Source: an uncultured Thermodesulfobacteriota bacterium
GTDB lineage: Bacteria; Desulfobacterota; S145-22
Length of the DNA: 64,000 nucleotides
Direction of reading: 5' to 3'
Assembly: GCA_964577975.1 (NCBI GenBank)
Contig: CAZOBB010000068.1
Span: 2,041-66,040, forward strand
Part shown: positions 5,629 through 47,648 of the stretch, in pieces
Numbering within the stretch: position 1 is the first letter of the stretch
How the letters are laid out: each line of letters opens with the position of its first letter
Made by a program: the position numbers and the translations under genes
The notes under the pieces: model-generated
The model's database searches: none
Seen by the model: only the letters and a program-made list of their open reading frames with translations
Told to the model about the DNA's origin: nothing

Positions 5629-8600
5629 TTGCAAAGTTTTGCCTCTTCATGGTTTTCAGAATCGAAAGAAACGTTGGATTTTGATGCCATTCGTATTGGT
5701 CTGGCTTCACCCGAAAAGATTGAAGCCCTGTCTCACGGTGAAGTCAAGAAACCTGAAACGATAAACTATCGGACATTTAAACCGGAGAAAGACGGGCTCT
5801 TCTGTGCGAGGATCTTCGGACCCGTCAAGGATTATGAATGTAATTGCGGTAAGTACAAACGGATGAAGCATCGCGGGATTGTGTGCGAAAAATGTGGCGT
5901 CGAGGTGATTCAGTCCAAGGTGCGGAGGGAAAGATTAGGGCATATCAAGCTGGCGAGCCCCGTGGCCCACATCTGGTTTTTGAAAAGTATTCCCAGCAAG
6001 ATTGGGACGTTGTTGGATATGTCCATCAGTGAGCTGGAGAGCATTCTTTATTTCGAGTCCTATGTGGTTTTGGATCCGAAAGAGACATCTTTGAAACGTG
6101 GAGAACTCCTCTCCGAGGAACGGTACAGAGATCTCTACGATGGAGAAGGATGGGATTTTAGGGCCGGAATTGGAGCGGAGGCGGTGCGCGAGCTTCTTCA
6201 AGACCTCGATCTGGAGGCCTTGGCGAAGGAACTGAGGGCGGAGCTGGCGGATACCAATTCTGACACGAAGAAGAAGAAGCTCGTGAAGCGCCTGAGGATC
6301 GTGGAGGCGTTCCTTGAATCGGGGAACAAACCGGAATGGATGATCTTAACCGTCATACCTGTGTTGCCTCCCGATTTGCGACCCCTTGTTCCTTTGGATG
6401 GAGGAAGGTTCGCGACATCGGATCTGAATGACCTCTACCGGCGGGTCATCAACCGGAACAACCGTTTGAAACGTCTCCTCGAGTTGGATGCCCCTGATAT
6501 TATCATCCGCAACGAAAAGCGGATGCTCCAAGAAGCCGTGGATGCCTTGTTTGACAATGGCAAGCGGGGACGCGCGATCGTGGGAGCGAATAAAAAGCCG
6601 CTGAAATCCTTGAGTGACATGCTTCGCGGAAAGCAGGGACGGTTCCGTCAGAACCTGCTGGGGAAACGGGTGGACTATTCGGGACGTTCCGTGATCGTTG
6701 TAGGCCCGGAGCTCAAACTGCATAAGTGTGGCCTTCCGAAGCGGATGGCTTTGGAGCTTTTTAAGCCGTTTATCTATGGGAAACTCCGAGAAAAGGGGCT
6801 GGCTATCACCATCAAAGCGGCTAAAAAGATTGTTGAGAAAGAAGGGCCCGAGGTTTGGGATATCCTCGATGAGATCATCCGGGAACATCCTGTTCTCCTG
6901 AACCGTGCCCCTACCCTCCACCGGCTTGGGATTCAGGCGTTTGAGCCGATTTTGATCGAGGGGAAGGCGATACAGTTGCATCCTCTTGTTTGTACGGCCT
7001 ATAATGCCGACTTCGATGGGGACCAGATGGCCGTTCATGTTCCTCTTTCGATCGAGGCAATGACGGAGGCGAGGGTTTTGATGATGTCTACCAACAACAT
7101 TCTTTCCCCCGCCAATGGAAAACCCATCATTGTGCCTACGCAGGATATCGTGCTTGGTTTGTATTTTATGACCATTACCCGTCCCTTTGTGAAGGGGGAA
7201 GGAAAGGTTTTCGCGAATCCTGAGGAGGTCCGAATTGCTCATGATCAGGGAGAAGCGGATCTTCATGCCGCCATCAAGGTCCGGATGGATGGTCAGATTG
7301 TGGAAACGAGTGTGGGAAGGATCCTTTTGAAGGAAGTAATCCCGGAGGATATACCCTTTGATCTCATCAACAAGCCGATGACAAAGAAGGAAGTGGCGAA
7401 GTTGGTGGACTATTCCTTCCGCAAGGCGGGAGATAAAAAGACCGTCATCCTTTCGGATAAATTGAAAAATCTTGGATATTACTACGCCACAAAGGCGGGA
7501 ATTTCCATTTGCATTGATGACCTCGTGATTCCCAAGCGAAAAGAAGAGTTGTTGGCCAAGGCGAATGAGGAAGTGGCAGAGGTGTATAAACACTATAGGG
7601 AAGGGATCATCACGGAGAGTGAGCGGTATAACAAGGTTATCGACATCTGGGCCGATACGACGGAAAAGGTGGCGGAAGAGATGATGGAAGAGCTCCGCTA
7701 TGAGGTCGTAGAGGATGTGGATGGCGAGAAAAAGGCGAAAACGAAAAGCCTTAACCCTGTCTTTATCATGGCGGATTCGGGCGCGAGAGGAAGCGCGCAG
7801 CAGATCCGCCAGTTGGCCGGGATGCGAGGGTTGATGGCAAAACCAACGGGAGAAATTATCGAAACACCGATTACCGCCAATTTCCGTGAAGGCTTGACCG
7901 TGTTGCAGTATTTTATCTCGACGCACGGCGCCAGGAAAGGGTTGGCGGATACCGCTTTGAAGACGGCGAACTCCGGTTACCTCACGCGCCGCCTCGTGGA
8001 TGTCTCCCAGGATACCGTGATTACCGAGTACGATTGTGGAACCTTGGATGGGATAGAGATGACCTCCCTGATTGAGGGTGGAAAGATCATAGAACCGGTT
8101 GGGGCAAGGATTCTGGGACGCGTGGCTTTGGAAGATATCGTGGATCCCTTTAGTGGGGAAGTTATCGTCGAGGCGAACCAGGAGATTGATGAAGAAGCCG
8201 TTCAAAGGATCAACGAGTGTGGAATTAACTCGGTGAAAATCCGCTCGGTTCTCACGTGCAAATCGAAACGCGGATGTTGCGTTCTTTGCTACGGACGTGA
8301 TCTCGCGAGGGGGCGATTGGTCAACGTGGGGGAGGCTATTGGAATTATTGCCGCCCAGTCCATTGGTGAGCCTGGTACCCAGTTGACGATGCGGACGTTT
8401 CATATCGGCGGTACGGCGAGTCGTCGGGTCGAGCAGAACACGTTGGAGTCGCCAATAGATGGAACCATAAAGTATGTGAACCTCAAGACAGTCAAAAATC
8501 GGCGAGGGGAGCATGTTGTCTTGAATCGGAATGGGGAGATTGCCATTCTGGATGCCGAGGGGAGGGAACGGAAGAAGTATCCTCTCATCTATGGGACGCG

Positions 8601-9843
8601 GGTGAAACTTGCGGATGGAGCAAAGGTCAAGGAAAAGCAACTTATCGCCGAATGGGATCCTTACAACACACCGGTCGTGACGGAAGTGTCGGGAAAGGTC
8701 AAATTTGGCGATGTGATCGAAGGCTTTACGATGCAGGAGCAGGTGGATGAGATCACGGGGCTTTCGACGAAGGTTATCGTGGAGTCCCGAGATCCTTCCC
8801 TGAGACCGAGGATCTCCATCAAGGATGAAAAAGGTAGAACGCAGAAACTGCCAGGTAGCTCCAGCATGGCCCGGTACCTCTTGCCGGTGGGTGCGATTAT
8901 TCAGGTTGCCGAAGGTGATGAGGTGCAGGCGGGAGATGTCATCGTCAAGATTCCAAGGGAAACCACGAAGACAAAGGACATCACCGGCGGATTGCCACGG
9001 GTTGTGGAATTGTTCGAAGCGAGAAAGCCGAAAGAGAGTGCCGTTATTAGCGAGATCGATGGGATTGTTTCCATTGGAAAGGATATCAAGGGGAAGCGAA
9101 CGGTTATTGTGACCCCCGAGGTCGGGGAGCCGAAAGAGTATGTGATTCCGAAGGGGAAGCATATCAGTGTTCATTCGGGTGATTTTATCAAGGCTGGAGA
9201 GGCATTGATGGATGGCCCCATCAATCCGCACGATATCCTGCGAGTGAAGGGGGAGAAGGAACTGGCAAAATATCTGGTGGACGAGGTTCAGGAAGTCTAC
9301 CGACTCCAAGGCGTCGAGATAAACGATAAGCACATTGAGGTCATTGTGCGTCAGATGCTCAAACGGGTGAAGATAAAAGAATCGGGAGACACGAAATTTC
9401 TGATTGATGACGTGGTGGAAAAACATGTTTTTGAAGAAGAGAACGAGCGTGTGTTGCAGGAAGGGGGGACACCTGCCGTGGCGGAACCGCTTCTGATGGG
9501 CATAACGAAAGCGGCGTTGATTACGGATAGCTTTATTTCGGCGGCCTCCTTTCAAGAAACGACAAAGGTTCTCACGGGGGCGAGTATCGCCGGAAAGATA
9601 GATTACTTGAAAGGCTTGAAGGAAAACGTAGTGGTGGGAAGGTTGATTCCGGCTGGTACGGGTTTTCGGAAGTATCAGGAACTGGAGGTAGTAACGGAGA
9701 CGGGAGAGCGGGAGTTTGGACCAAAATTTGATGCAACCCGAGAGTTGGAAGCGTTTGATGCCTTTGTGGCGACACCCCCTTCGCCGGTGAGTAGTGGCGG
9801 AGATGGCTCGACGGACAGCATAACGCCCATTGAGTTTAGATGA
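5629..9843 (+). CDS. rpoC: DNA-directed RNA polymerase subunit beta'
   Basis: TTG start 3 nt after the rpoB stop; 1404 aa; zinc-finger block [23 protein letters not shown]; catalytic motif [14 protein letters not shown]. Confidence 0.97.
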
Positions 9844-9913: not shown

Positions 9914-10714
9914 TTATCTGATTTTTCGGAGGACACGCTTGGCAATTTTTGCTTGATCTGTCCTGGGGAATTTTCTGATCAGTTTTTTCAAAACGAGTTT
10001 TCCATCCGTTTTATCCCCCAGTTTCAAAAACGCTAGACCCTCTTTGAGAAGGGCGGAAGGTATCTTGTCTCCTCGAGGGTAGGAACGGATAACCTTTTCA
10101 TACTCTAGGATTGCGCTTTCGAAATCGCCTTCCGAAAAATAGGTTTCCCCGATCCAGAATTGGGCATTGTCGGAGTAGACCGTTTTCGGATATTTTTTAA
10201 GAAAAGCCCGAAATTTTTCCCGTGCTTCAGAGTAGTTCCCTTGTGTGAAACTCTGATAGGCATCATCGTACATGGTTTCCATGGGTGATGCCGTTCCCGT
10301 GATGTCGTTCCGAATGGGAGCGGGCCTTGTGGGTTTTTGCCGTTGGGTGTGGACGGATTTCTCGATCTCCGAAATTCGCTGGTTTTGCACTTGAAGTTGC
10401 TGGCGCAGCTTTTCTATCTTGGCGTCATTCTCGCCCAAGCGTTGTGTCACATCTTCCGCTTTCGCGTCGACCGCTTTGACCTCGGTACTTAAGGAATCGA
10501 AACGGTTTTGTAGTTCAGCATATTTTATCTCGTTCTTGCTTTTCAGCGCCTTTAATTCAGCTCTTAGTTGGGAAATTTCGGCATTAAGACGGGCAATATC
10601 GCGCTGAAGGGGATCCTCGCTGGTTACACATCCCGTCAGGAGGACAACAAAGAAAAGAAGAAGGAAGAGAATCCTTCTTCTTCGTATATCATATTTGAGC
10701 CGTTGCGTGTTCAC
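9914..10714 (-). CDS. cpoB: Tol-Pal system protein YbgF/CpoB (coiled-coil plus TPR)
   Basis: Lipoprotein-type signal (LLTGCV); N-terminal coiled coil; C-terminal TPR repeats with YbgF-like pattern (YDDAYQSF..GNYSEAREKFRAFLKKYPKTVYSDNAQFWIGETYF); last gene of a tolB-pal-ybgF string. Confidence 0.8.
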   Translation of the reverse strand: MNTQRLKYDIRRRRILFLLLFFVVLLTGCVTSEDPLQRDIARLNAEISQLRAELKALKSKNEIKYAELQNRFDSLSTEVKAVDAKAEDVTQRLGENDAKIEKLRQQLQVQNQRISEIEKSVHTQRQKPTRPAPIRNDITGTASPMETMYDDAYQSFTQGNYSEAREKFRAFLKKYPKTVYSDNAQFWIGETYFSEGDFESAILEYEKVIRSYPRGDKIPSALLKEGLAFLKLGDKTDGKLVLKKLIRKFPRTDQAKIAKRVLRKIR

Positions 10715-10771
10715 GATGTCCGGAGGATTTGGCTCGGGGTGCCGTTACGGTACCCCGAGCTGTTGTTTTGT

Positions 10772-11311
10772 TTATTTTGCTAAAATAATGAAGTGGCACC
10801 GACGATTTTTGGCCCATGCCTCCTCATTGTGACGTGGATCCAGAGGCATTTCTTCTCCATAGCTAATCGTAGAGAGACGGTTGGCGTCCACGCCAAGGTT
10901 GATGAGGTATTTCTTGGCGCTTTCCGCTCTCCTTTCGCCCAATACCAAGTTGTATTCTACCGATCCCCGCTCGTCGCAGTGTCCTTCTATCTGGATCTTG
11001 TAGGTTGGGTGCGCCAGCAGGAACTCGGCGTTCTTTTTCAGGATCGCCGCCGCGTCAGGCCTGATATTGTATTTGTCGAAATCGAAGTGGATGTCCTTCA
11101 AATATTTGCTTTCCATGAATTCCCCTTGGATGCCCGGATATTTCTTCTTTTCCAGGCCTTCTTCTTGGACACCCTGTTTTTCTGTGCTTACCTGTTTCCC
11201 CTGTCCTTCGCCCGTTGTTGGTTTTACCGCCTTCTTGCTACAGCAACTTACCGTGATAAACAAGGGAAGCACCAAAAGGGCAATAAAAACTCCTAGGTTT
11301 CTCCTCTTCAT
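10772..11311 (-). CDS. pal: Peptidoglycan-associated lipoprotein Pal (OmpA-family C-terminal domain)
   Basis: Start taken at MKRRNLGV; lipobox ITVSCC; OmpA-like domain (DFDKYNIRPDAAAILKKNAEFL...EGHCDERGSVEYNLVLGERRAESAKKYL); between tolB and ybgF. Confidence 0.85.
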   Translation of the reverse strand: MKRRNLGVFIALLVLPLFITVSCCSKKAVKPTTGEGQGKQVSTEKQGVQEEGLEKKKYPGIQGEFMESKYLKDIHFDFDKYNIRPDAAAILKKNAEFLLAHPTYKIQIEGHCDERGSVEYNLVLGERRAESAKKYLINLGVDANRLSTISYGEEMPLDPRHNEEAWAKNRRCHFIILAK

Positions 11312-11325
11312 TGTTTCACCTCCTT

Positions 11326-12702
11326 TCATTTCTTAAGGTTTTCCAAATGCGGGGACCATGACGGCATTGTGTTTTTCCCCCTCCCCCGCGTTAGCCTTCG
11401 CTTGAAATTCCCATCAAAGTTCATGATATAGATGTCAACTCCCTGACGTGTGGCTTGGCTGTAAGCGATGTACCTCCCATCTGGTGACCATGTCGGCGAT
11501 TGATTATTGCCTACGAACGTTAGCACATGAATCGCGTTTCCGTCAAGAGAAATTGTACAGATTTGAAATTTGCCGTCAAGGATTCCGCTATAGGCGATTT
11601 TATCGCCTCTTGGAGACCAGGCGGGAGAAACGTTGTAAGAGCCGCGGAAGGTAAGTCGTTTCACGTTTGTTCCATCGACGTTCATAGTGTATATCTGGGG
11701 ATGTCCCGTTCTATTGGAAACAAAAGCGATTTTCTTGCCATCGGGAGACCATGAAGCGGAGAGATTGTCTCCCCATCCTTTCGTGAGTTGTTTGACTTTT
11801 CTTCCCCTTCTGTCAAGAAGGAAGATTTCGGATCCGGAGGGGGTTCGCATGGTAACGGCGAGATACCGACCATCCGGCGACCATGCAGGCGCGGTATTAA
11901 GACCGGTGCGATGGGAGAAAAGAGAGATTTTTCCCCGTATGAAGTCAATGATGTAGAGGTCGGGGTTTCTCCTCAAATAACACGTGAAAGCGATTTTCGT
12001 TCCATCGGGAGACCATCGTGGAGATAGATTGATGGAGCCGTTGTGCGTGACTCTTTTGAGATTTCGTCCATCGAAGTCAATGGTGTAGACTTCTTTGTTG
12101 CCGGGAAGTGTGGAAATGAAAGCGATTTTTGTATCGAAAAGGCCGTCGCTACCTGTAATATGGTAAATGATTTTGTTTTCAAAGGCGTGATAAACCCTGT
12201 CTAATGCCTTGATGGAACCCTTAATTCGGGCCCCTGCTATTTCCTTTGAAAGGGCAACGTCATAGAGATGATATTCGATGGAAAGGGAGTTTTGGACAAT
12301 TCCCACTGTAGTTGCAAGGACAAATTCGGCTCCTAGGTTTTTGTATTTTTTTAAGTCAATATGGTTATGGTAGAGATAGGCTGCTGTTACGGGTGACGGA
12401 ATCTCTTTCCCGGAAATGACGTTGAAAAAACCGGTGATCCATAAGTCGCGAGTAATCCTTTTTTCGAAAAGAAACGGTGTTATTTTCTTTGGGACGAAAT
12501 TGTCGTGCCACCGGGGAGGTAGAATGGCGATGTTGATCTTTCGGATATTCGGGGAAAAGATGTCAAGGTAAACTTTCGCCTCGGAGATAGAGGAGACGGC
12601 TAATACGGCAAAGAAAACGAAGAGAGGCAGGATAAAATTCCGTATGATTTTGTTTTTTCTGTTTATTTTTTCACCTCCAGGAGTTTTGGCTAATATACAC
12701 AT
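11326..12702 (-). CDS. tolB: Tol-Pal system beta-propeller protein TolB
   Basis: 458 aa; signal/TM followed by repeated WSPDG propeller blades (LSPRWSPDGTKIAF, APAWSPDGRYLAV, ASWSPDGKKIAF, PAWSPRGDKIAY, PTWSPDGRYIAY); the exact start codon is uncertain. Confidence 0.85.
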   Translation of the reverse strand: MCILAKTPGGEKINRKNKIIRNFILPLFVFFAVLAVSSISEAKVYLDIFSPNIRKINIAILPPRWHDNFVPKKITPFLFEKRITRDLWITGFFNVISGKEIPSPVTAAYLYHNHIDLKKYKNLGAEFVLATTVGIVQNSLSIEYHLYDVALSKEIAGARIKGSIKALDRVYHAFENKIIYHITGSDGLFDTKIAFISTLPGNKEVYTIDFDGRNLKRVTHNGSINLSPRWSPDGTKIAFTCYLRRNPDLYIIDFIRGKISLFSHRTGLNTAPAWSPDGRYLAVTMRTPSGSEIFLLDRRGRKVKQLTKGWGDNLSASWSPDGKKIAFVSNRTGHPQIYTMNVDGTNVKRLTFRGSYNVSPAWSPRGDKIAYSGILDGKFQICTISLDGNAIHVLTFVGNNQSPTWSPDGRYIAYSQATRQGVDIYIMNFDGNFKRRLTRGRGKNTMPSWSPHLENLKK

Positions 12703-15165: not shown

Positions 15166-15285
15166 GATTCATATCTTTTTGTCAATATTTCTGTTATAAA
15201 GTTTGGGATTGTTAAAGAGAAGAGAACCCTTGAGGTGAGACGAAAGGGTTTTCTGTCTTTATGGAATGGGGAAAGGAGGGAAAAA

Positions 15286-17397
15286 GTGCGAAGTAACCGA
15301 TGGTCTGCAGGAGAACTGAAACAGTACCTTGATCGTTATGCGTCTCAATGGGGAGAGGCGTTGGCGATTAGGGTTTATACATCTCAATTGCTGGGAAGGG
15401 ACAAAGAGCTCGTTCTTCATGGAGGGGGCAATACGTCGGTAAAGGCGCCTTTTACAACCTTGTTGCAGGAAGAGGTACCAGCGGTCTATGTCAAAGGCTC
15501 GGGATGGGACATGGCGACGACGGGACCTGAAGGATTTGTGCCTTTGGATATGAAAGCGCTGAAAAAGTTGAGGAAGCTTGCCGCAATAGAAGACAGAGTA
15601 ATGTTTGAGCAGTTTCGTCTCTCCATGTTGCGGATCCTTTCTTTCCATCCATCCATCGAGGCCTTGGCCCATGCTTGGTTACCGTATAAATATGTGGATC
15701 ATACCCATGCCAATGCGATCTTGGCACTTACGAATCAGGAAAACGGGGAGGAGAGAGTGCGGGAGGCGCTTGGGGAAGATGTCGTTATACGTCCGTATCT
15801 TCATCCCGGTTTTCACCTGAGCAAGGATCTTGCCGAAGTGGTTGAGAAGGTGCCGGATTGCAAGGGGGTTGTTCTGTTGCACCATGGCCTTTTTACCTTT
15901 CATGACGATGCCCGCGTGTCGTACGAGACGCATATCGAGTTGGTGAATCGCGCTGAGGCCTACCTGAGAACAAAGGCTTCCAAAACATTTTTCGATGTTC
16001 GGATAGAAAAAAAGGTGTCCCCTTTCTTTCCCCAGTTTGTTCCTATTATTCGAGGGCTTCTTGCGGAAAAGAGAGAGAATCCAGACCATCCTTACGCCCC
16101 CGTGATCCTTCGGACACTGGTGGAAGAAGAGGTTGGAAACATCGTTACGCATCCCCAGTTGGAAAAGATCGTGGAAGGACCAGTCTTGACGGCGGATTTT
16201 CTTATCCGTACCAAACCGTGGTTGGCATGGGTTAAGAATCCTCGGGTGGATGACATGGATGCGCTGCGCCGGCAACTTACCGAAGCGGTGGATGCGTTTT
16301 CGGAAAAATATGTGGCCTATTACCAGAGAGGGAGGGAAAGAACGGGGAGAAAACTTCCGATGTTTAATCCCAAACCTCGGATCCTTGTGATTCAAGGAGT
16401 GGGGGTTTTCTGTTCCGGAGATACGTTGAAAGAGGCAATGATAACGGCCGATTTGGCGTTGGCTACCTTAAGGGTAAAACGTGACATTGCGGCGATGGGT
16501 GGGGTGTACAAAGGGATTGAAGAAGCAAGGTTGTTTGAGATGGAATATTGGGAGCCCCAAATCGCGAAGCTTTCTGCGGGGAATAGAGGAGTGTTAGAGG
16601 GAAAGGTGGCTGTGATTACGGGGGCCGCGGGTGCGATTGGTTCAGCGATTTGTAGACGGCTTTTGGAAGAGGGGTGTGTCGTCGTGGGGACGGATTTGGA
16701 AGGGGATCCGTTGAGGGGTTTGGCGGAGGAATTGGAAGGAAGATTTGGGAAGAATTTCTTTGCGTTGCCGATGGACGTGACGGATGAGGCGTCGGTTCGG
16801 CAGGCCTTCGATACGATTCTCCTTCAGTTTGGAGGAGTGGACATTCTCGTGCCCAATGCGGGGGTGGCGTTTGTGAAACCGCTGGACGAGCTTGAGCTGG
16901 AGGATTTTCGAAGGGTTCACCGCGTAAACGTGGAAGGAACCCTCCTTTTCTTGAAATGGGGAGGGCGGATCCTGAAGAGCCAGGGGACAGGAGGGGATAT
17001 TATCTTTATCTCCACTAAGAATGTGCCCGCCCCTGGAGCGAGTTTTGGTGCGTATAGCGCGACGAAGGCCGCCGCACACCAGTTGGCGAGGGTAGCGAGT
17101 TTGGAGTTGGCTCCCTATGGAATTCGAGTGAATAATTTGGCCCCGGATGCCGTCTTTAGGGGAGAGGAAGGTAGAAAATCGGGTTTGTGGGAGGTTTGTG
17201 GACCTGAAAGGATGAAGAGTCGAGGGCTCGACGAAAAAGGGTTGGAGGAATATTATCGCAACAGGAACCTTCTCAAGATTCAGGTTAGAGCGGAGCATGT
17301 GGCGAATGGGGTGGTCTTTTTCGCCTCACGCCAGACCCCTACGACGGGGGCGACCCTCCCGGTGGACGGGGGATTGCCGGAAGCGACACCTCGATAG
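15286..17397 (+). CDS. Bifunctional class-II aldolase (rhamnulose-1-phosphate aldolase-like) / short-chain dehydrogenase
   Basis: GTG start after a GGAAAGGAGGG RBS; N-terminal aldolase-II/adducin fold; C-terminal SDR with TGAAGAIG Rossmann motif and YSATKAA catalytic YxxxK. Confidence 0.8.
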   Translation: MRSNRWSAGELKQYLDRYASQWGEALAIRVYTSQLLGRDKELVLHGGGNTSVKAPFTTLLQEEVPAVYVKGSGWDMATTGPEGFVPLDMKALKKLRKLAAIEDRVMFEQFRLSMLRILSFHPSIEALAHAWLPYKYVDHTHANAILALTNQENGEERVREALGEDVVIRPYLHPGFHLSKDLAEVVEKVPDCKGVVLLHHGLFTFHDDARVSYETHIELVNRAEAYLRTKASKTFFDVRIEKKVSPFFPQFVPIIRGLLAEKRENPDHPYAPVILRTLVEEEVGNIVTHPQLEKIVEGPVLTADFLIRTKPWLAWVKNPRVDDMDALRRQLTEAVDAFSEKYVAYYQRGRERTGRKLPMFNPKPRILVIQGVGVFCSGDTLKEAMITADLALATLRVKRDIAAMGGVYKGIEEARLFEMEYWEPQIAKLSAGNRGVLEGKVAVITGAAGAIGSAICRRLLEEGCVVVGTDLEGDPLRGLAEELEGRFGKNFFALPMDVTDEASVRQAFDTILLQFGGVDILVPNAGVAFVKPLDELELEDFRRVHRVNVEGTLLFLKWGGRILKSQGTGGDIIFISTKNVPAPGASFGAYSATKAAAHQLARVASLELAPYGIRVNNLAPDAVFRGEEGRKSGLWEVCGPERMKSRGLDEKGLEEYYRNRNLLKIQVRAEHVANGVVFFASRQTPTTGATLPVDGGLPEATPR

Positions 17398-17467: not shown

Positions 17468-17917
17468 ATGGAAGTAATATTGATGGAGGATATACCGGAA
17501 CTGGGAAAGATTGGGGATGTGGTTAAGGTAAAGGATGGGTACGGAAGAAACTACCTCATTCCGGCAAAAAAGGCCATTAGGGCGACGACACGGAACCTGA
17601 AGAGATTGCAGCATGAAAAACAGCTTGCGCAGCACCGAATCCAAAAGGCCCACCAAAACGCCGAGGCCTTGAAAGAGAAAATTTCAAACCTCGTGTGCGT
17701 TATCAAAAAGGCGGCAGGGGATACGGGAAAACTGTTTGGATCTGTTACGAGCATGGAAATCGAAGCCTATTTGAAGGAACATGGGGTGCCGGTGGATAAA
17801 AAGCAGATTCATCTGGAAGAACCCATCAAATCGGTTGGGTCTTTTGAAGTGCCCATTCGTTTGATGGAAGGTGTTACGGCAACCTTGAAGTTGGAGGTTG
17901 AGGCGGAGGAGAAATGA
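17468..17917 (+). CDS. rplI: 50S ribosomal protein L9
   Basis: 149 aa; MEVILMEDIPELGKIGDVVKVKDGYGRNYLIP is the canonical L9 N-terminus. Confidence 0.92.
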   Translation: MEVILMEDIPELGKIGDVVKVKDGYGRNYLIPAKKAIRATTRNLKRLQHEKQLAQHRIQKAHQNAEALKEKISNLVCVIKKAAGDTGKLFGSVTSMEIEAYLKEHGVPVDKKQIHLEEPIKSVGSFEVPIRLMEGVTATLKLEVEAEEK

Positions 17918-19284
17918 GCCTTCCCTTGTCAAAACCCTCTGCGGAACGGATTCCTCCCCATAATGTAGAGGCGGAACAGGCCATTTTGGGAGGAATTTTA
18001 CTTGACCCGGATGCTTTGGGAAGGGTGTTGGAGCTTGTGGAACCGGAGGATTTTTATCACGAGGCCCACCAAGCCATCTATCAGCAGATGCTGAACCTCT
18101 TCGAGCGGGGTGAGCCAATAGACCTTATCACTTTGACGGAAAGCCTTCAAACGCGCCAACTTTTGGAACGGTGTGGAGGAGCTCCTTATATCGCGGGGCT
18201 TACGGATATTGTTGTCACATCTGCGAATATCACGCATTACGCGCGGATCGTTAAGGAAAAAGCGACGTTGCGGAAATTGATGCAGGTGACGAGTGATATC
18301 TTTTCGCGGTGTTTTGAATTGGATATGGAGGTCGATGCCTTCTTGGATGAGGTGGAAAAAAAGATATTTAGTATCGCGGAAAATAAGATCCATCCCGATT
18401 ATTACCCCATCAAGGAGGTTGTGAAAGAGAGCTTTGAGCAGATCGAGCGTCTGACGCAGGCGAAGGAGTTTATCACCGGCGTCCCAACGGGTTTCGATGA
18501 CTTGGATAGATACACGGCAGGGTTTCAACCATCGGATCTGATTATCGTAGCGGGACGTCCTGGGATGGGGAAAACAGCCTTTGCCTTGAATGTGGCCCAA
18601 CACTGTGCGACGCAGCACGGGATTGGGGTGGGAATCTTTTCTCTCGAGATGTCGAAGAATCAGCTAGTCACTCGCATGCTGTGTTCCGAGGCCCAGGTGG
18701 ATTCCCAAAGGTTGCGACGCGGGTATATCGAATTGGCGGAAATGCAGCGTCTCATCCAGGCCGCGGGGAAGCTGGCGGAGGCACCGATTTTGATAGACGA
18801 GACGGCTTCCACCGTTTTGGAGATTCGGGCCACCGCCAGGAGGATGATGGCAGAAGGGAATATCGGTCTTCTCATCATCGATTATCTTCAATTGATGAGG
18901 GGGCGTGCCGGAGCGGAACGGCGGGAACAGGAGATCTCGGAGATTTCAAGGTCCCTGAAACTTTTGGCAAAGGAACTTAATATTCCTATCATTGCCATTT
19001 CCCAGTTGAATCGAAGGGTGGAAGACAGAAAAGGTAAACGTCCTGAATTGGCAGATCTCCGAGAGTCGGGGGCGATAGAACAGGATGCGGACCTGATATT
19101 GTTTATCTTTCGGGAAGAGGTGTACAAGCAGGACGAGGCGAGCCCCAACAAAGGAGAGGCGGAAGTTATTATTGGCAAACAGAGGAATGGCCCGACAGGG
19201 GTTGTGAAGTTGGCTTTCTTGAGCCAGTATACCACCTTTCGAAATTTGGCGGTTAGACGGGAAGAGGAATCGATCATGCAATAA
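17914..19284 (+). CDS. dnaB: Replicative DNA helicase DnaB
   Basis: ATGA overlap with rplI; N-terminal DnaB domain (PHNVEAEQAILGGILLD); Walker A GRPGMGKTAF; Walker B LLIIDYLQLM; arginine-finger region. Confidence 0.95.
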   Translation: MSLPLSKPSAERIPPHNVEAEQAILGGILLDPDALGRVLELVEPEDFYHEAHQAIYQQMLNLFERGEPIDLITLTESLQTRQLLERCGGAPYIAGLTDIVVTSANITHYARIVKEKATLRKLMQVTSDIFSRCFELDMEVDAFLDEVEKKIFSIAENKIHPDYYPIKEVVKESFEQIERLTQAKEFITGVPTGFDDLDRYTAGFQPSDLIIVAGRPGMGKTAFALNVAQHCATQHGIGVGIFSLEMSKNQLVTRMLCSEAQVDSQRLRRGYIELAEMQRLIQAAGKLAEAPILIDETASTVLEIRATARRMMAEGNIGLLIIDYLQLMRGRAGAERREQEISEISRSLKLLAKELNIPIIAISQLNRRVEDRKGKRPELADLRESGAIEQDADLILFIFREEVYKQDEASPNKGEAEVIIGKQRNGPTGVVKLAFLSQYTTFRNLAVRREEESIMQ

Positions 19285-19307
19285 ATAACGCATAGGGAGG
19301 TTGGGTT

Positions 19308-20399
19308 ATGAAAAAGGTAATGAAGGCTGGAGTATTGTTAGGATTGATTGGAATAGTGACGGTGTTTCTTTCCTGTGCGCCGACGGCGGAGGTGACGAGT
19401 GGGACGGGAGGTCCCTCCATGGGACAGGCGCAAGCGGAATACTATAATGGGCCGAAGGCCAGAATTGCGGTGGCACGATTTGATGTCAAGGCGGCAAAGG
19501 CTCGTGATATCTATGGCTATGCCCAAATAGGGGATGGACTGGCAGAGATGCTGACCACGGAGCTTTTCAACACGAACCGTTTTATCGTGTTGGAGCGTCA
19601 ACAGCTACAGGACATCTTAAAAGAACAGGATCTGGGAGCTTCGGGACGAGTCAGACCCGAGACGGCGGCTCCCATCGGACAGGTGGAAGGCGCGGAACTG
19701 CTGGTTTATGGTGCCGTCACGGCATTTGAACCCAACTATCGGGGAGGCGGCGGCGGCTTAGTCGTTCCCGGCTTGAATTTTGGGTTGGGGGCAGGTGCGA
19801 AACAGGCCTATATGGCAATCGATCTGAGAATTGTGGATACGCGAACATCCCGGATATTAGCGGCTACGTCTGTCGAGGGGAAGTCCACCGACTTTGGCGC
19901 TGTTTTTGGAGCGGTTATTGGTGGAGGGAAAACGAGGATGCCGTTGGGCCTGGGAGGTTGGCAAAATACGCCGATGGAAAAGGCGATCCGGGTTTGTATC
20001 AAAAGGGCGGTTGACTTTATCGTAAGCCGGACTCCTCCTCAATACTATCACTACAATGCGCAGGGAATGCCTATCAGCGCTCCCCAAGGCAATTATGGAG
20101 CTGGCGGAGGGGGATCCGCTGCCGGTGGAGCACCATCCGGAAATCGTCCTCAACACCAACTGAACAGACCCGGTGGGCCCTCTCCGCAAACAAATCAGGG
20201 GGGGGGTGATATCGTGGTGGTTAAAGCCTTTAAAGCGAATATCCGAAAATCGAATTCGACCAACAGTCCCATCGTAACAACCGTGAAACGCGGAGAGAAA
20301 CTAGTCATCCTGGAAGAAAAAGGTGACTGGTATCATATTCAAACGGAATCGGGTGTAATGGGATGGGTCTATAAATTTCTCACCCGTCGGGGTGATTGA
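19308..20399 (+). CDS. CsgG-family lipoprotein (curli-secretion-pore homologue) with Gly-rich linker and C-terminal bacterial SH3 domain
   Basis: Lipoprotein signal with LSC lipobox; CsgG-like core (ARIAVARFDVKAA...GLAEMLTTELFNTNRFIVLERQQLQDILKEQ); low-complexity Gly tract; C-terminal SH3_3-like segment (VVKAFKANIRKSNSTNSPIVTTVKRGEKLVILEEKGDWYHIQTESGVMGWV). Confidence 0.75.
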   Translation: MKKVMKAGVLLGLIGIVTVFLSCAPTAEVTSGTGGPSMGQAQAEYYNGPKARIAVARFDVKAAKARDIYGYAQIGDGLAEMLTTELFNTNRFIVLERQQLQDILKEQDLGASGRVRPETAAPIGQVEGAELLVYGAVTAFEPNYRGGGGGLVVPGLNFGLGAGAKQAYMAIDLRIVDTRTSRILAATSVEGKSTDFGAVFGAVIGGGKTRMPLGLGGWQNTPMEKAIRVCIKRAVDFIVSRTPPQYYHYNAQGMPISAPQGNYGAGGGGSAAGGAPSGNRPQHQLNRPGGPSPQTNQGGGDIVVVKAFKANIRKSNSTNSPIVTTVKRGEKLVILEEKGDWYHIQTESGVMGWVYKFLTRRGD

Positions 20400-20412
20400 G
20401 AAGGGCGGAAAA

Positions 20413-20826
20413 ATGAAGCGCTTTTATGTGTATGTTCTTGTTTTCGTGCTTGGGTTGGGGGTGATAGGGGCACCCCCAACCAGGGCGAAGGTGATCTCCA
20501 AGAGGGTGGCCAAGATCTACCAGATTCGAATTTACCAGCGGGGCCCTAAAATGGCTGGTCCCCAGCAGACCTATTGGAATTTGAATGTGAATTACGTGGG
20601 CCCAGGGGATTTGGGCAATCTAATAAGTTTGGAGGTCTTCGTAAATAATCGCATGGAAGTTGAGGCGGTTAAAATCGTACGGAAAACCTACGATAGAAAG
20701 ATTGTGAGCTCCTTGTTGCGAAACGTGTCAGAGCTTTCCATCGAATATGTGCCGCCGGGTTCACCGGTGCGGGGAAAAGACCTCCAAATTACCGTATTGA
20801 CGATGGACGAACTAAAAATTCCATGA
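20413..20826 (+). CDS. Hypothetical secreted protein (about 137 aa, N-terminal signal peptide)
   Basis: Starts 14 nt after the CsgG-like stop; hydrophobic signal VYVLVFVLGLGVIGAPPTRA; no recognisable domain. Confidence 0.5.
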   Translation: MKRFYVYVLVFVLGLGVIGAPPTRAKVISKRVAKIYQIRIYQRGPKMAGPQQTYWNLNVNYVGPGDLGNLISLEVFVNNRMEVEAVKIVRKTYDRKIVSSLLRNVSELSIEYVPPGSPVRGKDLQITVLTMDELKIP

Positions 20827-20833
20827 AGGGGTC

Positions 20834-21361
20834 ATGAACCTTCCAAATTTCTTGACCCTGACAAGGATTCTGTTAGTCCCTTTTTTTGTCATAGCGGTTG
20901 TTTATCGTCATTTTACGTATGCCATCGGAATCTTTTTCGTAGCGGGAGTGACGGACGGGCTGGATGGACTTCTCGCGCGATCTTTGAAACAAAAGACGAG
21001 ACTGGGGGCCATCTTAGATCCTTTGGCGGACAAGCTTCTACTCATGTCTGGGTATATTACGTTGGGTACGTTGCATCTTGTGCCTTTTTGGCTGCCGGTC
21101 GTCGTGGTGAGTCGCGATGTGATTATTGCCCTGGGGATGCTCGTAATCGTGATTTTCGGTTACAACTATGAAATCCGACCTCGGCTGATTAGCAAGGCTA
21201 CGACGGTGTTTCAAATTGTGACGGTTCTTGCCGTGTTGGGTTCCCAGTATTGTTCATTTCTATCCCATCATCTCCTGGGGCTTTATGCGGTTACGGTTGT
21301 CTTTACAGTGGTCTCAGGGTTGTATTATATCTATTTGGGAATGAAAATCTTAAACCCTTAA
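20834..21361 (+). CDS. pgsA: CDP-alcohol phosphatidyltransferase (phosphatidylglycerophosphate synthase-like)
   Basis: D-G-x2-A-R...G...D-x3-D motif (DGLDGLLARSLKQKTRLGAILDPLADK); multiple TM helices; 175 aa. Confidence 0.8.
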   Translation: MNLPNFLTLTRILLVPFFVIAVVYRHFTYAIGIFFVAGVTDGLDGLLARSLKQKTRLGAILDPLADKLLLMSGYITLGTLHLVPFWLPVVVVSRDVIIALGMLVIVIFGYNYEIRPRLISKATTVFQIVTVLAVLGSQYCSFLSHHLLGLYAVTVVFTVVSGLYYIYLGMKILNP

Positions 21362-21372
21362 CAAAGGAGTAG

Positions 21373-22656
<1,284 letters not shown>

Positions 22657-22713: not shown

Positions 22714-22782
22714 TAAGAGCGGTATCTTATTTTTGTCTTTGGCAGGTTTTGACATATAAAAGAAGGGTGATAGAATCGATTT

Positions 22783-24258
22783 ATGCGACTGGATCGTAGA
22801 AAAGAAGGTATAGAAGAACAACCAGAGAATTTAAAAAGGATTCCTTTCATTTTCACTATGGCCGGGTTGGCGGTAGGTCTTTTCCTCGTGCTTATGGCTT
22901 ATGTCATCCAATATGTTGCAGGGCCTCCCATTGCCAATGCCAATGGTTCTTTCTGGGATACACTCAAATCCCTTCATGCCGCCAATCCCATCCTTTTTCT
23001 TATGGATAATACCCCATGGGTGTTGGCGACGGTGGCGGCCGTCATGGGGAAAAGGCAAAAAGAGAAGGCGATCTATCTATGGAAGCTCAAAGGGATGTTG
23101 AGACGACGGAGTGCAGAGTTGCGCTCCATTCGGAGCCGTTATACCAAGCTGTTTGAAGGTGTCAATGAGTGTCTGTTCATCACCACCCATGAAGGGGAGA
23201 TCATCGACATCAACCAGGCAGGAATTACCCTTTTCAAGATGGAGGAATTGGTTGGGGAAAAGGGCAAGAACAAGGGAGCGATTCGGGAAATTTTAAGGGA
23301 AAAGGGTGTGAGTGCCAAGACTTTTTATGCCAGTGAGGAGGATGGGGCCCGCTTGATAGAAGAATTGGAGAAGAAGGGAATTGTTTCCAATTATCAGATA
23401 CGAATGAAGCGTTTCAATGGAGAGATATTCGAGGCCCTTTTTACGATGTCGGTGAAAACGGACGATGGAGGGGGGAAGCTTTTTTTTGGGCGAATTATTG
23501 ATCTGAGTTCTGTGAAACGGGCGGAGCTGCTATTGGCGAAGGCGAATCTGGAATTGGAGAGAAAAAATCGGGAGCTGATGGAGGCGTTTTCGGAGCTTCA
23601 GGTCTTGAAGGTACGGTATGAAAAGCGCAGTATCGAGCTTGAGAGGGCAAATAGGGAACTTCATCGTTTGAACAGGTTGCTGGCAGACATGGCGATTACG
23701 GATGGATTGACGGGGCTTTATAATCATCGCCATTTTAGGGGGCTTTTAAAGAGGGAATGGGAAAGGGCCAATAGAGAAAAGACAAATTTTTGCGTCATGA
23801 TGATTGATATCGATTATTTTAAAGCCTTTAATGATACGTGGGGGCATCAGTTTGGAGATGAGATACTTAAGACCGTCGCGTATACCATTAAACGTCAAAT
23901 GAGAAGCTATGATGTCGTGGCGAGGTACGGAGGAGAAGAATTTTGTGTTATCCTGCCGGGCACGGATTTGGAAACCTGTTATACGATTGCGCAGCGTATT
24001 CGTGAGGCGGTCGAAGACAAAATTCTCCTGTCTGGCCCGGAAGAGAAGAAAGAAAAACTTACCGTAAGTATAGGTGTCACTATTTTCCTTCCTCAAGAAG
24101 GAGACCGCCGCACATCCGATCAGATTCTTCAAGATGCGGATGTAGCCCTTTATCGTGCAAAGAGCAAGGGACGAAACAGGGTTGAGATGCATCGAAGAGA
24201 TTTGTCGGCGGAACGAGGGTACCTTTCCTTTTCATTGAGAGGAAGTAATGGGGGATGA
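22783..24258 (+). CDS. Membrane-anchored PAS-GGDEF diguanylate cyclase
   Basis: N-terminal TM helices; PAS-like segment; coiled coil; GGDEF domain with RYGGEEF active site and RxxD I-site-like motif; stop overlaps the next gene (ATGA). Confidence 0.85.
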   Translation: MRLDRRKEGIEEQPENLKRIPFIFTMAGLAVGLFLVLMAYVIQYVAGPPIANANGSFWDTLKSLHAANPILFLMDNTPWVLATVAAVMGKRQKEKAIYLWKLKGMLRRRSAELRSIRSRYTKLFEGVNECLFITTHEGEIIDINQAGITLFKMEELVGEKGKNKGAIREILREKGVSAKTFYASEEDGARLIEELEKKGIVSNYQIRMKRFNGEIFEALFTMSVKTDDGGGKLFFGRIIDLSSVKRAELLLAKANLELERKNRELMEAFSELQVLKVRYEKRSIELERANRELHRLNRLLADMAITDGLTGLYNHRHFRGLLKREWERANREKTNFCVMMIDIDYFKAFNDTWGHQFGDEILKTVAYTIKRQMRSYDVVARYGGEEFCVILPGTDLETCYTIAQRIREAVEDKILLSGPEEKKEKLTVSIGVTIFLPQEGDRRTSDQILQDADVALYRAKSKGRNRVEMHRRDLSAERGYLSFSLRGSNGG

Positions 24259-44459: not shown

Positions 44460-44551
<92 letters not shown>

Positions 44552-44580
44552 TTTTCTATAAATGTGGATGGGTGGGGGGG

Positions 44581-44608
44581 TTCACATCCAACAAGGGTGT
44601 GATATAAT
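44581..44608 (+). promoter_or_regulatory. Candidate sigma-70 promoter for tRNA-Ser(GGA) / ffs
   Basis: TTCACA - 16 nt - TATAAT, 17 nt upstream of the tRNA 5' end. Confidence 0.45.
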
Positions 44609-44625
44609 GAGGTGATTTCGTGAAG

Positions 44626-44719
44626 GGAGAGATGTCCGAGCTGGCCGAAGGAGCACGATTGGAAATCGTGTGTACCCCCACAAGGGGTACCGAGGGTTCG
44701 AATCCCTCTCTCTCCGCCA
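44626..44719 (+). tRNA. tRNA-Ser (anticodon GGA), class II, encoded CCA
   Basis: Same acceptor and T arms as the first tRNA-Ser; anticodon stem-loop CACGA-TTGGAAA-TCGTG; long variable arm. Confidence 0.85.
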
Positions 44720-44730
44720 TGAGTGTGAAA

Positions 44731-44860
44731 GGGTGAATGGCCTGGATAGTCGGGTCCTGCGCAACATAAACCCGCGAACCCCGTCAGGTCCGGAAGGAAG
44801 CAGCGGTAGTGGGACCTTATGTGTGCCGCAGGGGTGCCTGACTATCCAGTCGGTTCACCC
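44731..44860 (+). ncRNA. ffs: Signal recognition particle RNA (small/4.5S-type SRP RNA)
   Basis: Contains the universally conserved domain-IV sequence GTCAGGTCCGGAAGGAAGCAGC; 5' GGGTGAATGGCCTGGATAGTC pairs with 3' GACTATCCAGTCGGTTCACCC; followed by a TTTT tract; lies immediately upstream of dnaX, the classic ffs-dnaX-ybaB-recR arrangement. Confidence 0.8.
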
Positions 44861-47562: not shown

Positions 47563-47648
47563 TGGTGCCGAAGGCGGGACTCGAACCCGCACAGGCGTAG
47601 CCCACCACCCCCTCAAGATGGCGTGTCTACCAGTTCCACCACTTCGGC
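47563..47648 (-). tRNA. tRNA-Leu (anticodon GAG), class II, encoded CCA
   Basis: Reverse complement GCCGAAGTGGTGGAACTGGTAGACACGCCATCTTGAGGGGGTGG...GGGTTCGAGTCCCGCCTTCGGCACCA; acceptor GCCGAAG/CTTCGGC; anticodon loop TTGAGGG. Confidence 0.85.

Follow-up and report, generated by a model that had tools for sequence, protein, structure and literature searches.

In a 64-kb stretch of DNA from an uncultured Thermodesulfobacteriota bacterium (contig CAZOBB010000068.1 of assembly GCA_964577975.1; hereafter the window, and the only part of the genome visible to us), two adjacent open reading frames (ORFs) encode a CsgG-like outer-membrane lipoprotein that ends in a bacterial SH3 (SH3b) domain (ORF A) and a small secreted protein of a rare family (ORF B). 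We found that ORF A belongs to a branch of the CsgG family in which the CsgG-defining constriction loop (Tyr/Asn/Phe) is lost, and that ORF B lies directly downstream of a CsgG-like gene at every locus where its position could be judged, with all partnered CsgG-like proteins falling into one clade. The reading we tentatively favor, at a little less than an even chance, is that ORF A is a lipid-anchored outer-membrane ring with Gly-rich hairpins in or across the membrane and an SH3b domain pinned to peptidoglycan, and that ORF B is a clade-specific periplasmic accessory.

The domain identities of ORF A are clear. It matched the Pfam CsgG model PF03783 (E = 1.8e-45; 155 bits against a cut-off of 20.8; profile positions 8–199 of 210), and its C-terminal region matched PF08239 (SH3_3; E = 5.9e-13; 49.2 bits against a cut-off of 27; residues 310–355) and SH3_4 (E = 2.7e-7). 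The signal peptide ends at a lipobox cysteine (VFLS-C23) that is invariant among 31 diverse aligned homologs and was recognized by reading the sequence. An AlphaFold2 (AF2) monomer model (mean predicted local distance difference test score [pLDDT] of 72) placed a helix over the signal peptide (residues 2–21) and built the alpha/beta core and a six-stranded SH3 barrel (pLDDT 95–97) with confidence. The linker between them (~60 residues, enriched in Gly, Pro, Gln, Asn, and Ser) was modeled as disordered (pLDDT 37–43) and varies in length and sequence among aligned homologs. When the model was compared with PDB using Foldseek, CsgG (4uv2) ranked first (E = 1e-8), followed by further outer-membrane lipoproteins that form rings, FlgT, GNA1162, PelC, and CT253 (E = 1e-7 to 1e-5), and a family profile found E. 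coli CsgG at E = 2e-11. The SH3 part of that profile matched the SH3b domains of the NlpC/P60 dipeptidyl-peptidase VI, an autolytic lysozyme, and several cell-wall hydrolases (E = 1e-7 to 1e-4); on this homology, the SH3 domain of ORF A probably binds peptidoglycan or the cell wall. An earlier note on this DNA had described ORF A as a CsgG-like lipoprotein with a Gly-rich linker and a C-terminal bacterial SH3 domain, and these searches agree with it on all counts. A protein 100% identical to ORF A is present in the database (P0001). Both ORF A and ORF B are under purifying selection, with nonsynonymous substitution rates (dN) against clade relatives of 0.12–0.20 and 0.13–0.25, respectively; the ratio to the synonymous rate (dN/dS) was not quantifiable, because synonymous sites are saturated in both genes.

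To place ORF A against CsgG, we aligned 96 family members with E. coli CsgG. At the positions of the two CsgG transmembrane hairpins, TM1 and TM2, ORF A has segments of 27 residues (142–168) and 28 residues (194–221), compared with 25 and 29 in E. coli and family medians of 29 and 28. The composition of these segments is different from that in E. coli: family-wide, the TM1-position segment is 41% Gly and 11% charged and the TM2-position segment 35% Gly and 5% charged, whereas the E. coli hairpins are 12–25% Gly and 15–24% charged and the soluble core of the ORF A family is 23–27% charged. The TM2-position segment ends on an aromatic residue (W218 in ORF A; W, Y, or F in 96% of members) that directly precedes an invariant Asn/Lys-Thr-Pro, which fits a membrane interface.

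The constriction loop is shortened to 14 residues in ORF A (family median 11) versus 19 in E. coli. The E. coli motif PYPASNFS, which contains Tyr51, Asn55, and Phe56, aligns to a gap of 8 residues in the family profile, and no conserved Phe-Asn pair was found in this loop across the 96 aligned members. According to Van den Broeck et al. (PMC4594475), CsgG-like translocators require a stacked phi-clamp and a hydrogen-bonding ring; by this criterion ORF A, which lacks the Phe56/Asn55/Tyr51 loop, is no CsgG-type peptide translocator. ORF A also scored only 36.5 bits against the NCBIfam CsgG equivalog NF011731 (cut-off 505), and phmmer searches with E. coli queries, which have limited sensitivity, found no relatives of csgA, csgB, csgE, or csgF among the window ORFs or in 91 related loci. 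We therefore rejected a curli assignment on the equivalog score, the missing loop, and the phmmer result, in line with the earlier note, which had reported no csgA/B/E/F genes here and had considered the locus non-curli.

ORF B is a small exported protein without a recognizable domain. Its mechanical frame opens at GTG 20392, a start that overlaps ORF A by 7 nt, but all homologs start at ATG 20413 (MKR...), which leaves a gap of 13 nt; the alignment of homologs thus fixes the start at ATG 20413 and the length at 137 aa. The signal peptide (residues 1–25) is of the n/h/c type, with MKR followed by a hydrophobic stretch and a cleavage site after PPTRA and before KV, the Ala at −1 being near-invariant. 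The mature protein has 112 aa, an isoelectric point of 9.8, and no Cys. Conserved features of the family are Ser29, Gln37, Trp55, Gly-Pro-Gly at 63–65, and a C-terminal Pro. No Pfam or NCBIfam model matched ORF B, nor did any Pfam model match the 52 family members, so the description of a 137-aa signal-peptide protein with no recognizable domain stands. AF2 modeled a seven-stranded all-beta domain (pLDDT 84), for which Foldseek found nothing significant in PDB (best E = 0.03, the RbmC beta-prism, template modeling score 0.26) or in BFVD (best E = 0.02, an uncharacterized phage protein); jacalin-type lectins recurred at low rank, below any threshold. A relationship of ORF B to CsgA, CsgC, CsgE, or CsgF was rejected because hhalign gave probabilities below 1% (0.4% or lower for each of CsgE, CsgF, and CsgC).

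The ORF B family is rare. A single-sequence search returned only 17 close relatives (at least 67% identity), and a profile built from them added four distant homologs (30%–41% identity) among the fetched loci; iterating the profile over all loci brought in no further, more distant members. A widened alignment searched against the protein database gave 60 clusters, and an exhaustive profile search gave 13 clusters (50% identity) among 1.84 billion representatives. One loop of ORF B, P115-G-S-P-V-R120, matches PxxPxR, the class II SH3-ligand pattern, and is found in nine of nine aligned partners from the SH3-bearing clade versus 2 of 43 from SH3-less lineages, which mostly have PGSxRPxK instead. 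As a speculative addition, this loop could be a ligand of the SH3 domain. The lead is weak because the distribution amounts to one phylogenetic event and because bacterial SH3b domains usually bind cell-wall peptides.

The pairing of the two genes is strict. All 20 loci in which the position could be judged have ORF B 0–59 nt 3′ of a CsgG-like gene, and two further copies sit at contig ends. Each of the four distant homologs is directly 3′ of an SH3-less CsgG-like gene in a Nitrospinota or Nitrospirota metagenome-assembled genome (MAG), and six more family members that were located on contigs all follow just after a CsgG-like gene of 244–248 aa. The earlier note had pointed to the small ORF immediately following ORF A and had left its conservation beside CsgG-like genes to be checked in relatives, where it now proves consistent. 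In a neighbor-joining tree of the CsgG domain (a crude tree, without support values), all partnered proteins form one clade, within which the window lineage (SH3 and partner) is sister to a Nitrospinota/Nitrospirota lineage (partner only). Exact-sequence look-ups of ORF A and ORF B in the contig index gave no match, so gene context was taken from the loci of relatives. It differs between the two lineages: the pair is flanked by dnaB and pgsA-eno in the window lineage and by panC and ADH-lgt-rluD in the Nitrospinota/Nitrospirota lineage, which shows further local rearrangements (L060, L085, and L090).

In both lineages the pair also lies beside genes of lipoprotein or phospholipid biogenesis, namely pgsA in the window (20834–21361) and lgt in Nitrospinota (L085–L091). 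An lnt gene is near the pair in L090 (6757–7362), and a Rokubacteria CsgG-like gene is one gene away from an ORF that clusters with the pgsA-like gene of the window (L020, 3394–3933). The pgsA step leads toward phosphatidylglycerol, which Lgt uses as its lipid donor. The nearness of the pair to these genes could be coincidence.

The CsgG-SH3 fusion alone is common and already annotated. A database search with ORF A returned more than 2,000 relatives, and most of the 120 best matches contain both CsgG and SH3 domains. A genome scan yielded 308 loci, among them loci from Thermodesulfobacteriota, Desulfobacterales, Nitrospirota, Planctomycetota, Gammaproteobacteria (Wenzhouxiangella), Aminicenantes, Rokubacteria, and Nitrospinota; the closest relatives are labeled as Thermodesulfobacteriota or "Deltaproteobacteria" MAGs, and one cultured strain, Desulfospira joergensenii DSM 10085 (L073), which carries the SH3-only form, is among the loci listed. 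The fused architecture is common in environmental genomes, mostly as a solitary gene amid housekeeping genes, and is already in the databases, since the proteins are called "CsgG/HfaB family protein" or "SH3 domain-containing protein" in their sources. A published survey placed 74% of PF03783 matches outside curli systems (Dueholm et al. 2012, PMC3521004). In our sample of 99 CsgG-like ORFs, SH3 occurs alone in 43, the partner alone in 11, both in 9, and neither in 36. Hence, the CsgG domain, the SH3 domain, and the partner are separable parts, and only the window's own clade (the nine) has both SH3 and partner. Across 67 analyzable loci there was no universally conserved neighbor of CsgG-like genes; neighborhoods are lineage-specific and mostly housekeeping (uvrB/uvrC, a radical-SAM enzyme, a kinase, and bactofilin), which argues against a dedicated adjacent cargo for the whole family.

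We suggest the following mechanism. ORF A would be exported by Sec, lipidated on Cys23, and placed in the inner leaflet of the outer membrane, where it might assemble into a ring by analogy with CsgG. Two Gly-rich, hairpin-length segments per subunit would dip into or cross the membrane, and an SH3b domain on its flexible ~60-residue linker would trail each subunit; as the linker is long enough to reach peptidoglycan, we propose that the ring is pinned to the cell wall. ORF B would also be exported by Sec, cleaved after Ala25, and fold as a small all-beta periplasmic domain that works with the ring as a clade-specific accessory, perhaps a cap or an adaptor, and not as cargo. We favor an accessory over a cargo because the compact beta domain predicted for ORF B is basic and has neither repeats nor Cys, whereas the cargo of CsgG-type channels is disordered and repeat-rich. 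The 13-nt gap between the genes is compatible with translational coupling. As the earlier note suggested, the pair may act in secretion or in periplasmic anchoring.

Several points weigh against this mechanism. First, the AF2 monomer modeled residues 142–164 and 196–221 with low confidence and did not build them as extended hairpins, and hydrophobic-moment analysis found no clear two-residue beta periodicity in the two segments. With 35%–41% Gly and almost no polar lining, they are also unlike the E. coli barrel. Because of this composition and the lack of a clear periodicity, an open aqueous pore is not assured. Second, the constriction loop by which CsgG is defined has gone. Third, the partner is missing from 79 of the 99 sampled CsgG-like ORFs; since most members do without ORF B, it is not needed for the core function of the family. 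Fourth, peptidoglycan binding by the SH3 domain is predicted from homology only, and physical contact between ORF A and ORF B is putative. Last, ORF B could be a cargo, which we think less likely.

A cargo role would make the pair a two-gene secretion system, in which ORF A is an outer-membrane channel that delivers ORF B to the cell surface or the medium. The strict adjacency and the single clade of the pair agree with such a system, as does a Sec signal peptide without a lipobox on ORF B, and the shortened constriction loop might widen the pore. It is also general knowledge that characterized channels of the CsgG family, in curli and the holdfast anchor, are encoded beside their substrates: CsgG exports CsgA and CsgB, and HfaB serves HfaA and HfaD. 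Yet CsgG-type channels pass unfolded chains, and the prediction for ORF B is a compact, folded beta domain, without repeats, without Gln/Asn-rich amyloid-like character, and without similarity to CsgA. Most family members, moreover, have no adjacent candidate cargo. We consider a secretion system of this kind rather improbable.

Slightly less probable still, in our view, is a non-pore role, in which ORF A forms a periplasm-facing ring or scaffold under the outer membrane, like PelC, FlgT, or LpoB, and organizes or regulates cell-wall or envelope processes via its SH3 domain; the Gly-rich segments would then be flexible loops or peripheral anchors. The Foldseek matches to FlgT, PelC, GNA1162, and CT253 listed above speak for it, and so does a faint match to LpoB (PF13036, 20.4 bits against a cut-off of 22.3; the second LpoB model, TIGR02722, gave 21.8 against 110.55), although both LpoB scores are below cut-off and reflect a common core fold only. 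The hairpin segments, nearly all Gly and hydrophobic residues, have no polar lumen face, the constriction loop is missing, and the family's neighbors are envelope-related or housekeeping genes (Ser/Thr kinase, PEGA protein, and bactofilin) and not cargo. Against a scaffold, the CsgG hairpin lengths are kept across ~96 diverse members, PelC, LpoB, and GNA1162 are much smaller (131–158 residues in the chains matched), and the sequence of ORF A is clearly nearest to CsgG.

It is very unlikely that ORF B is functionally unrelated to ORF A and that their adjacency is inherited synteny without meaning. The whole region is syntenic in the window clade, so its nine loci count as one observation, and the Nitrospinota/Nitrospirota loci share much context among themselves. 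However, the pair persists between two lineages with wholly different flanks and through the local rearrangements of the second, holds at only 30%–40% ORF B identity, and in none of the 20 judgeable loci is ORF B away from a CsgG-like gene. A cryptic curli system with its csgA/B/E/F genes outside the window, conceivable in that PF03783 is the curli channel family and only part of the genome is visible, can be dismissed almost entirely, given the low equivalog score, the missing loop, the lack of curli components in the phmmer searches, and the largely non-curli membership of PF03783.

Returning to the favored ring with its accessory, a bolder version can be put forward with more doubt than confidence: the partnered clade (the window lineage together with Nitrospinota and Nitrospirota) may encode an undescribed two-protein outer-membrane device. 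Its ring, derived from CsgG, would have glycine-lined hairpins but lack the phi-clamp, and it would require a dedicated small beta-sandwich protein from a new family as plug, cap, or cargo; in the window lineage, SH3 domains would also tie the ring to the cell wall. To our knowledge, CsgG is the sole structurally understood member of its large lipoprotein family, and its pore is used in commercial nanopore sequencing. By 2012, about three quarters of the PF03783 family lay outside curli systems and had no assigned function (PMC3521004). The present locus stands for a non-curli branch, widespread among genomes, in which the constriction has been lost, the hairpins are glycine-lined, and a predicted cell-wall-binding domain is often present. 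What is new is the lost CsgG constriction, the atypical hairpins, and a rare, undescribed family strictly coupled to one clade; nothing established is overturned. Should it form a pore, the ring would have a geometry unlike that of CsgG; if it does not, the CsgG fold would have been reused as an envelope scaffold. ORF B offers an experimental handle for co-purification, co-modeling, and localization.

The features of the locus are collected in Table 1. The ORF list contains both ORFs where the earlier note had placed them, and a domain search of the flanking genes bears out the housekeeping string rplI-dnaB-[pair]-pgsA-eno that it described. From dnaB through ORF A, ORF B, and pgsA to eno, all genes run in the same direction with spacings of 23, 13, 7, and 14 nt, and a promoter/terminator scan found no site above shuffled background between the genes from rplI to eno. 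Because the genes are co-directional, the gaps short, and no promoter- or terminator-like site stands out, ORF A and ORF B are probably co-transcribed with dnaB, pgsA, and eno.

Table 1. Coordinates of the CsgG-SH3/ORF B locus and its neighbors in the 64-kb window
Feature	Position	Strand	Basis or remark
rplI	17468–17917	+	Upstream, co-directional with ORF A
dnaB	17914–19284	+	Upstream, co-directional; 23 nt to ORF A
Shine-Dalgarno-like GGGAGG	19296–19301	+	Sequence reading; 6-nt spacer to the ORF A ATG
ORF A, CsgG-like outer-membrane lipoprotein with C-terminal SH3b, 363 aa	19308–20399	+	Stop codon included
Lipoprotein signal peptide ending at lipobox Cys23 (VFLS-C)	19308–19376	+	Sequence reading
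CsgG-family alpha/beta domain, residues 49–240	19452–20027	+	PF03783 match
Gly-rich segment at CsgG TM1 position, residues 142–164	19731–19799	+	Alignment to E. coli TM1
Gly-rich segment at CsgG TM2 position, residues 196–221	19893–19970	+	Alignment to E. coli TM2
Low-complexity linker, ~residues 250–300	20055–20207	+	pLDDT 37–43
SH3b domain, residues 301–361	20208–20390	+	SH3_3 and SH3_4 matches; pLDDT 95–97
ORF B, small secreted partner, 137 aa	20413–20826	+	Stop codon included
ORF B loop P115-G-S-P-V-R120, fits PxxPxR	20755–20772	+	Alignment
pgsA-like (CDP-alcohol phosphatidyltransferase)	20834–21361	+	Downstream, co-directional; 7 nt after ORF B
eno (enolase)	21376–22656	+	Downstream, co-directional; 14 nt after pgsA-like

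The strongest sigma-70-like site of the scanned region (22749–22776; TTGACA, 16 nt, TAGAAT; 11 of 12 matches, with a TG extension) lies directly 5′ of a PAS-GGDEF diguanylate cyclase gene (22783–24258) and probably shows where the rplI-to-eno transcription unit ends. Just 5′ of rplI is a gene (15235–17397) whose 720-aa product joins a class II aldolase domain to a short-chain dehydrogenase; its position is kept in clade relatives. Farther upstream, the window contains rpoC, an opposite-strand cpoB-pal-tolB set, and an OmpR-type two-component pair. The TolB-Pal-CpoB set (9914–12702) is canonical; the organism is therefore a diderm, and its Tol-Pal system is normal. A 1,069-aa open frame without a family match (6346–9555, − strand), antisense to rpoC (5629–9843, + strand), is almost certainly a shadow ORF and no gene. 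Elsewhere in the window are two tRNA genes directly followed by a small signal recognition particle RNA gene on the + strand and a third tRNA gene on the − strand (44460–44846 and 47566–47648).

Across the wider family, other genes recur beside particular groups of CsgG-like genes. A Hanks-type Ser/Thr kinase gene is immediately beside the CsgG-SH3 gene, in varying orientation, in 12 loci of a large SH3-bearing clade (L026, L029, L033, L038, L042, L058, L061, L048, L071, L054, L073, and L076), and L014 also carries one a few kb from its CsgG-SH3 gene; there is none in the window. In these kinases, a Pkinase domain is combined with a Pro-rich region and a membrane segment, and the extracytoplasmic domain at the C terminus is unannotated. 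Among the carriers are Desulfobulbaceae, Desulfohalobiaceae, Desulfospira, and a Kiloniellaceae MAG; in this clade, the kinase may act as the functional partner. Meanwhile, tandem pairs of diverged CsgG-like genes occur in Nitrospirota, Planctomycetota, and Wenzhouxiangella, both without SH3 (L018, L019, L021, L025, and L041) and with it (L055, L080, and probably L011), which suggests hetero-oligomeric rings or subfunctionalized paralogs. Just 5′ of the CsgG-like gene, L016, L025 (4845–5930), L041, and L068 have a gene for a secreted PEGA-domain protein that shares its strand, and L075 has one on the other strand; L025 and L041, which are Nitrospirota loci, encode a DUF4870 membrane protein between the two. 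In six Aminicenantes-type loci, the gene just 3′ of the CsgG-like gene encodes a bactofilin and runs on the opposite strand. Seven loci titled "Eubacteriales" or "Clostridiales" (L027, L037, L046, L049, L052, L059, and L072) cluster tightly with Aminicenantes in the CsgG tree and share the Aminicenantes uvrB/uvrC context, and the labels of these MAGs look doubtful.

Among known systems, the closest is CsgG of the enterobacterial type VIII secretion system (PDB 4UV3, 4UV2, and 4Q79), a nonamer with a 36-strand barrel, which shares with ORF A the lipobox, the alpha/beta core, the Pfam family, and two inserts of equal length at the hairpin positions. The two proteins are only ~20% identical, and ORF A, far under the equivalog cut-off, differs in its shortened constriction loop, its Gly-rich uncharged hairpins, and its extra linker and SH3b domain. 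The curli system has CsgA, CsgB, CsgE, and CsgF, whereas the partner of ORF A is a different, all-beta protein. CsgE, CsgF, and CsgC resemble ORF B in their ~100–120 mature residues, in Sec export, and in being encoded beside a channel gene, but they show no sequence or profile similarity to it and are absent from its fold matches.

A search of the literature for CsgG-like proteins with SH3 domains found no characterized example. HfaB, the holdfast anchor protein of Caulobacter, is a CsgG-family lipoprotein encoded beside small secreted partners in the hfaABD operon. As a non-curli member with adjacent small secreted partners, it is like ORF A, but it is not known to have an SH3 domain, and its partners differ in gene order and belong to unrelated families; ORF A neighbors dnaB and ORF B/pgsA, and its match to the NCBIfam HfaB equivalog NF037935 was weak (25.2 bits against a cut-off of 300). 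PelC, FlgT, GNA1162, and LpoB share with ORF A the alpha/beta core and are outer-membrane lipoproteins that act on the periplasmic side. Their sequence likeness to ORF A is marginal, however, and the PelC and GNA1162 chains matched, in the size range given above, lack its two long inserts. LpoB has a long disordered linker that spans the periplasm, but this is N-terminal, whereas the linker of ORF A is C-terminal. In overall design, ORF A resembles Pal, OmpA-like domains, and the AMIN domains of the PilQ secretin, in which an outer-membrane component is tied to the cell wall by a binding domain. There, the binding module is OmpA_C or AMIN, whereas in ORF A it would be SH3b, and, unlike in the Pal, OmpA, and PilQ machines, the membrane component of ORF A is of the CsgG family.

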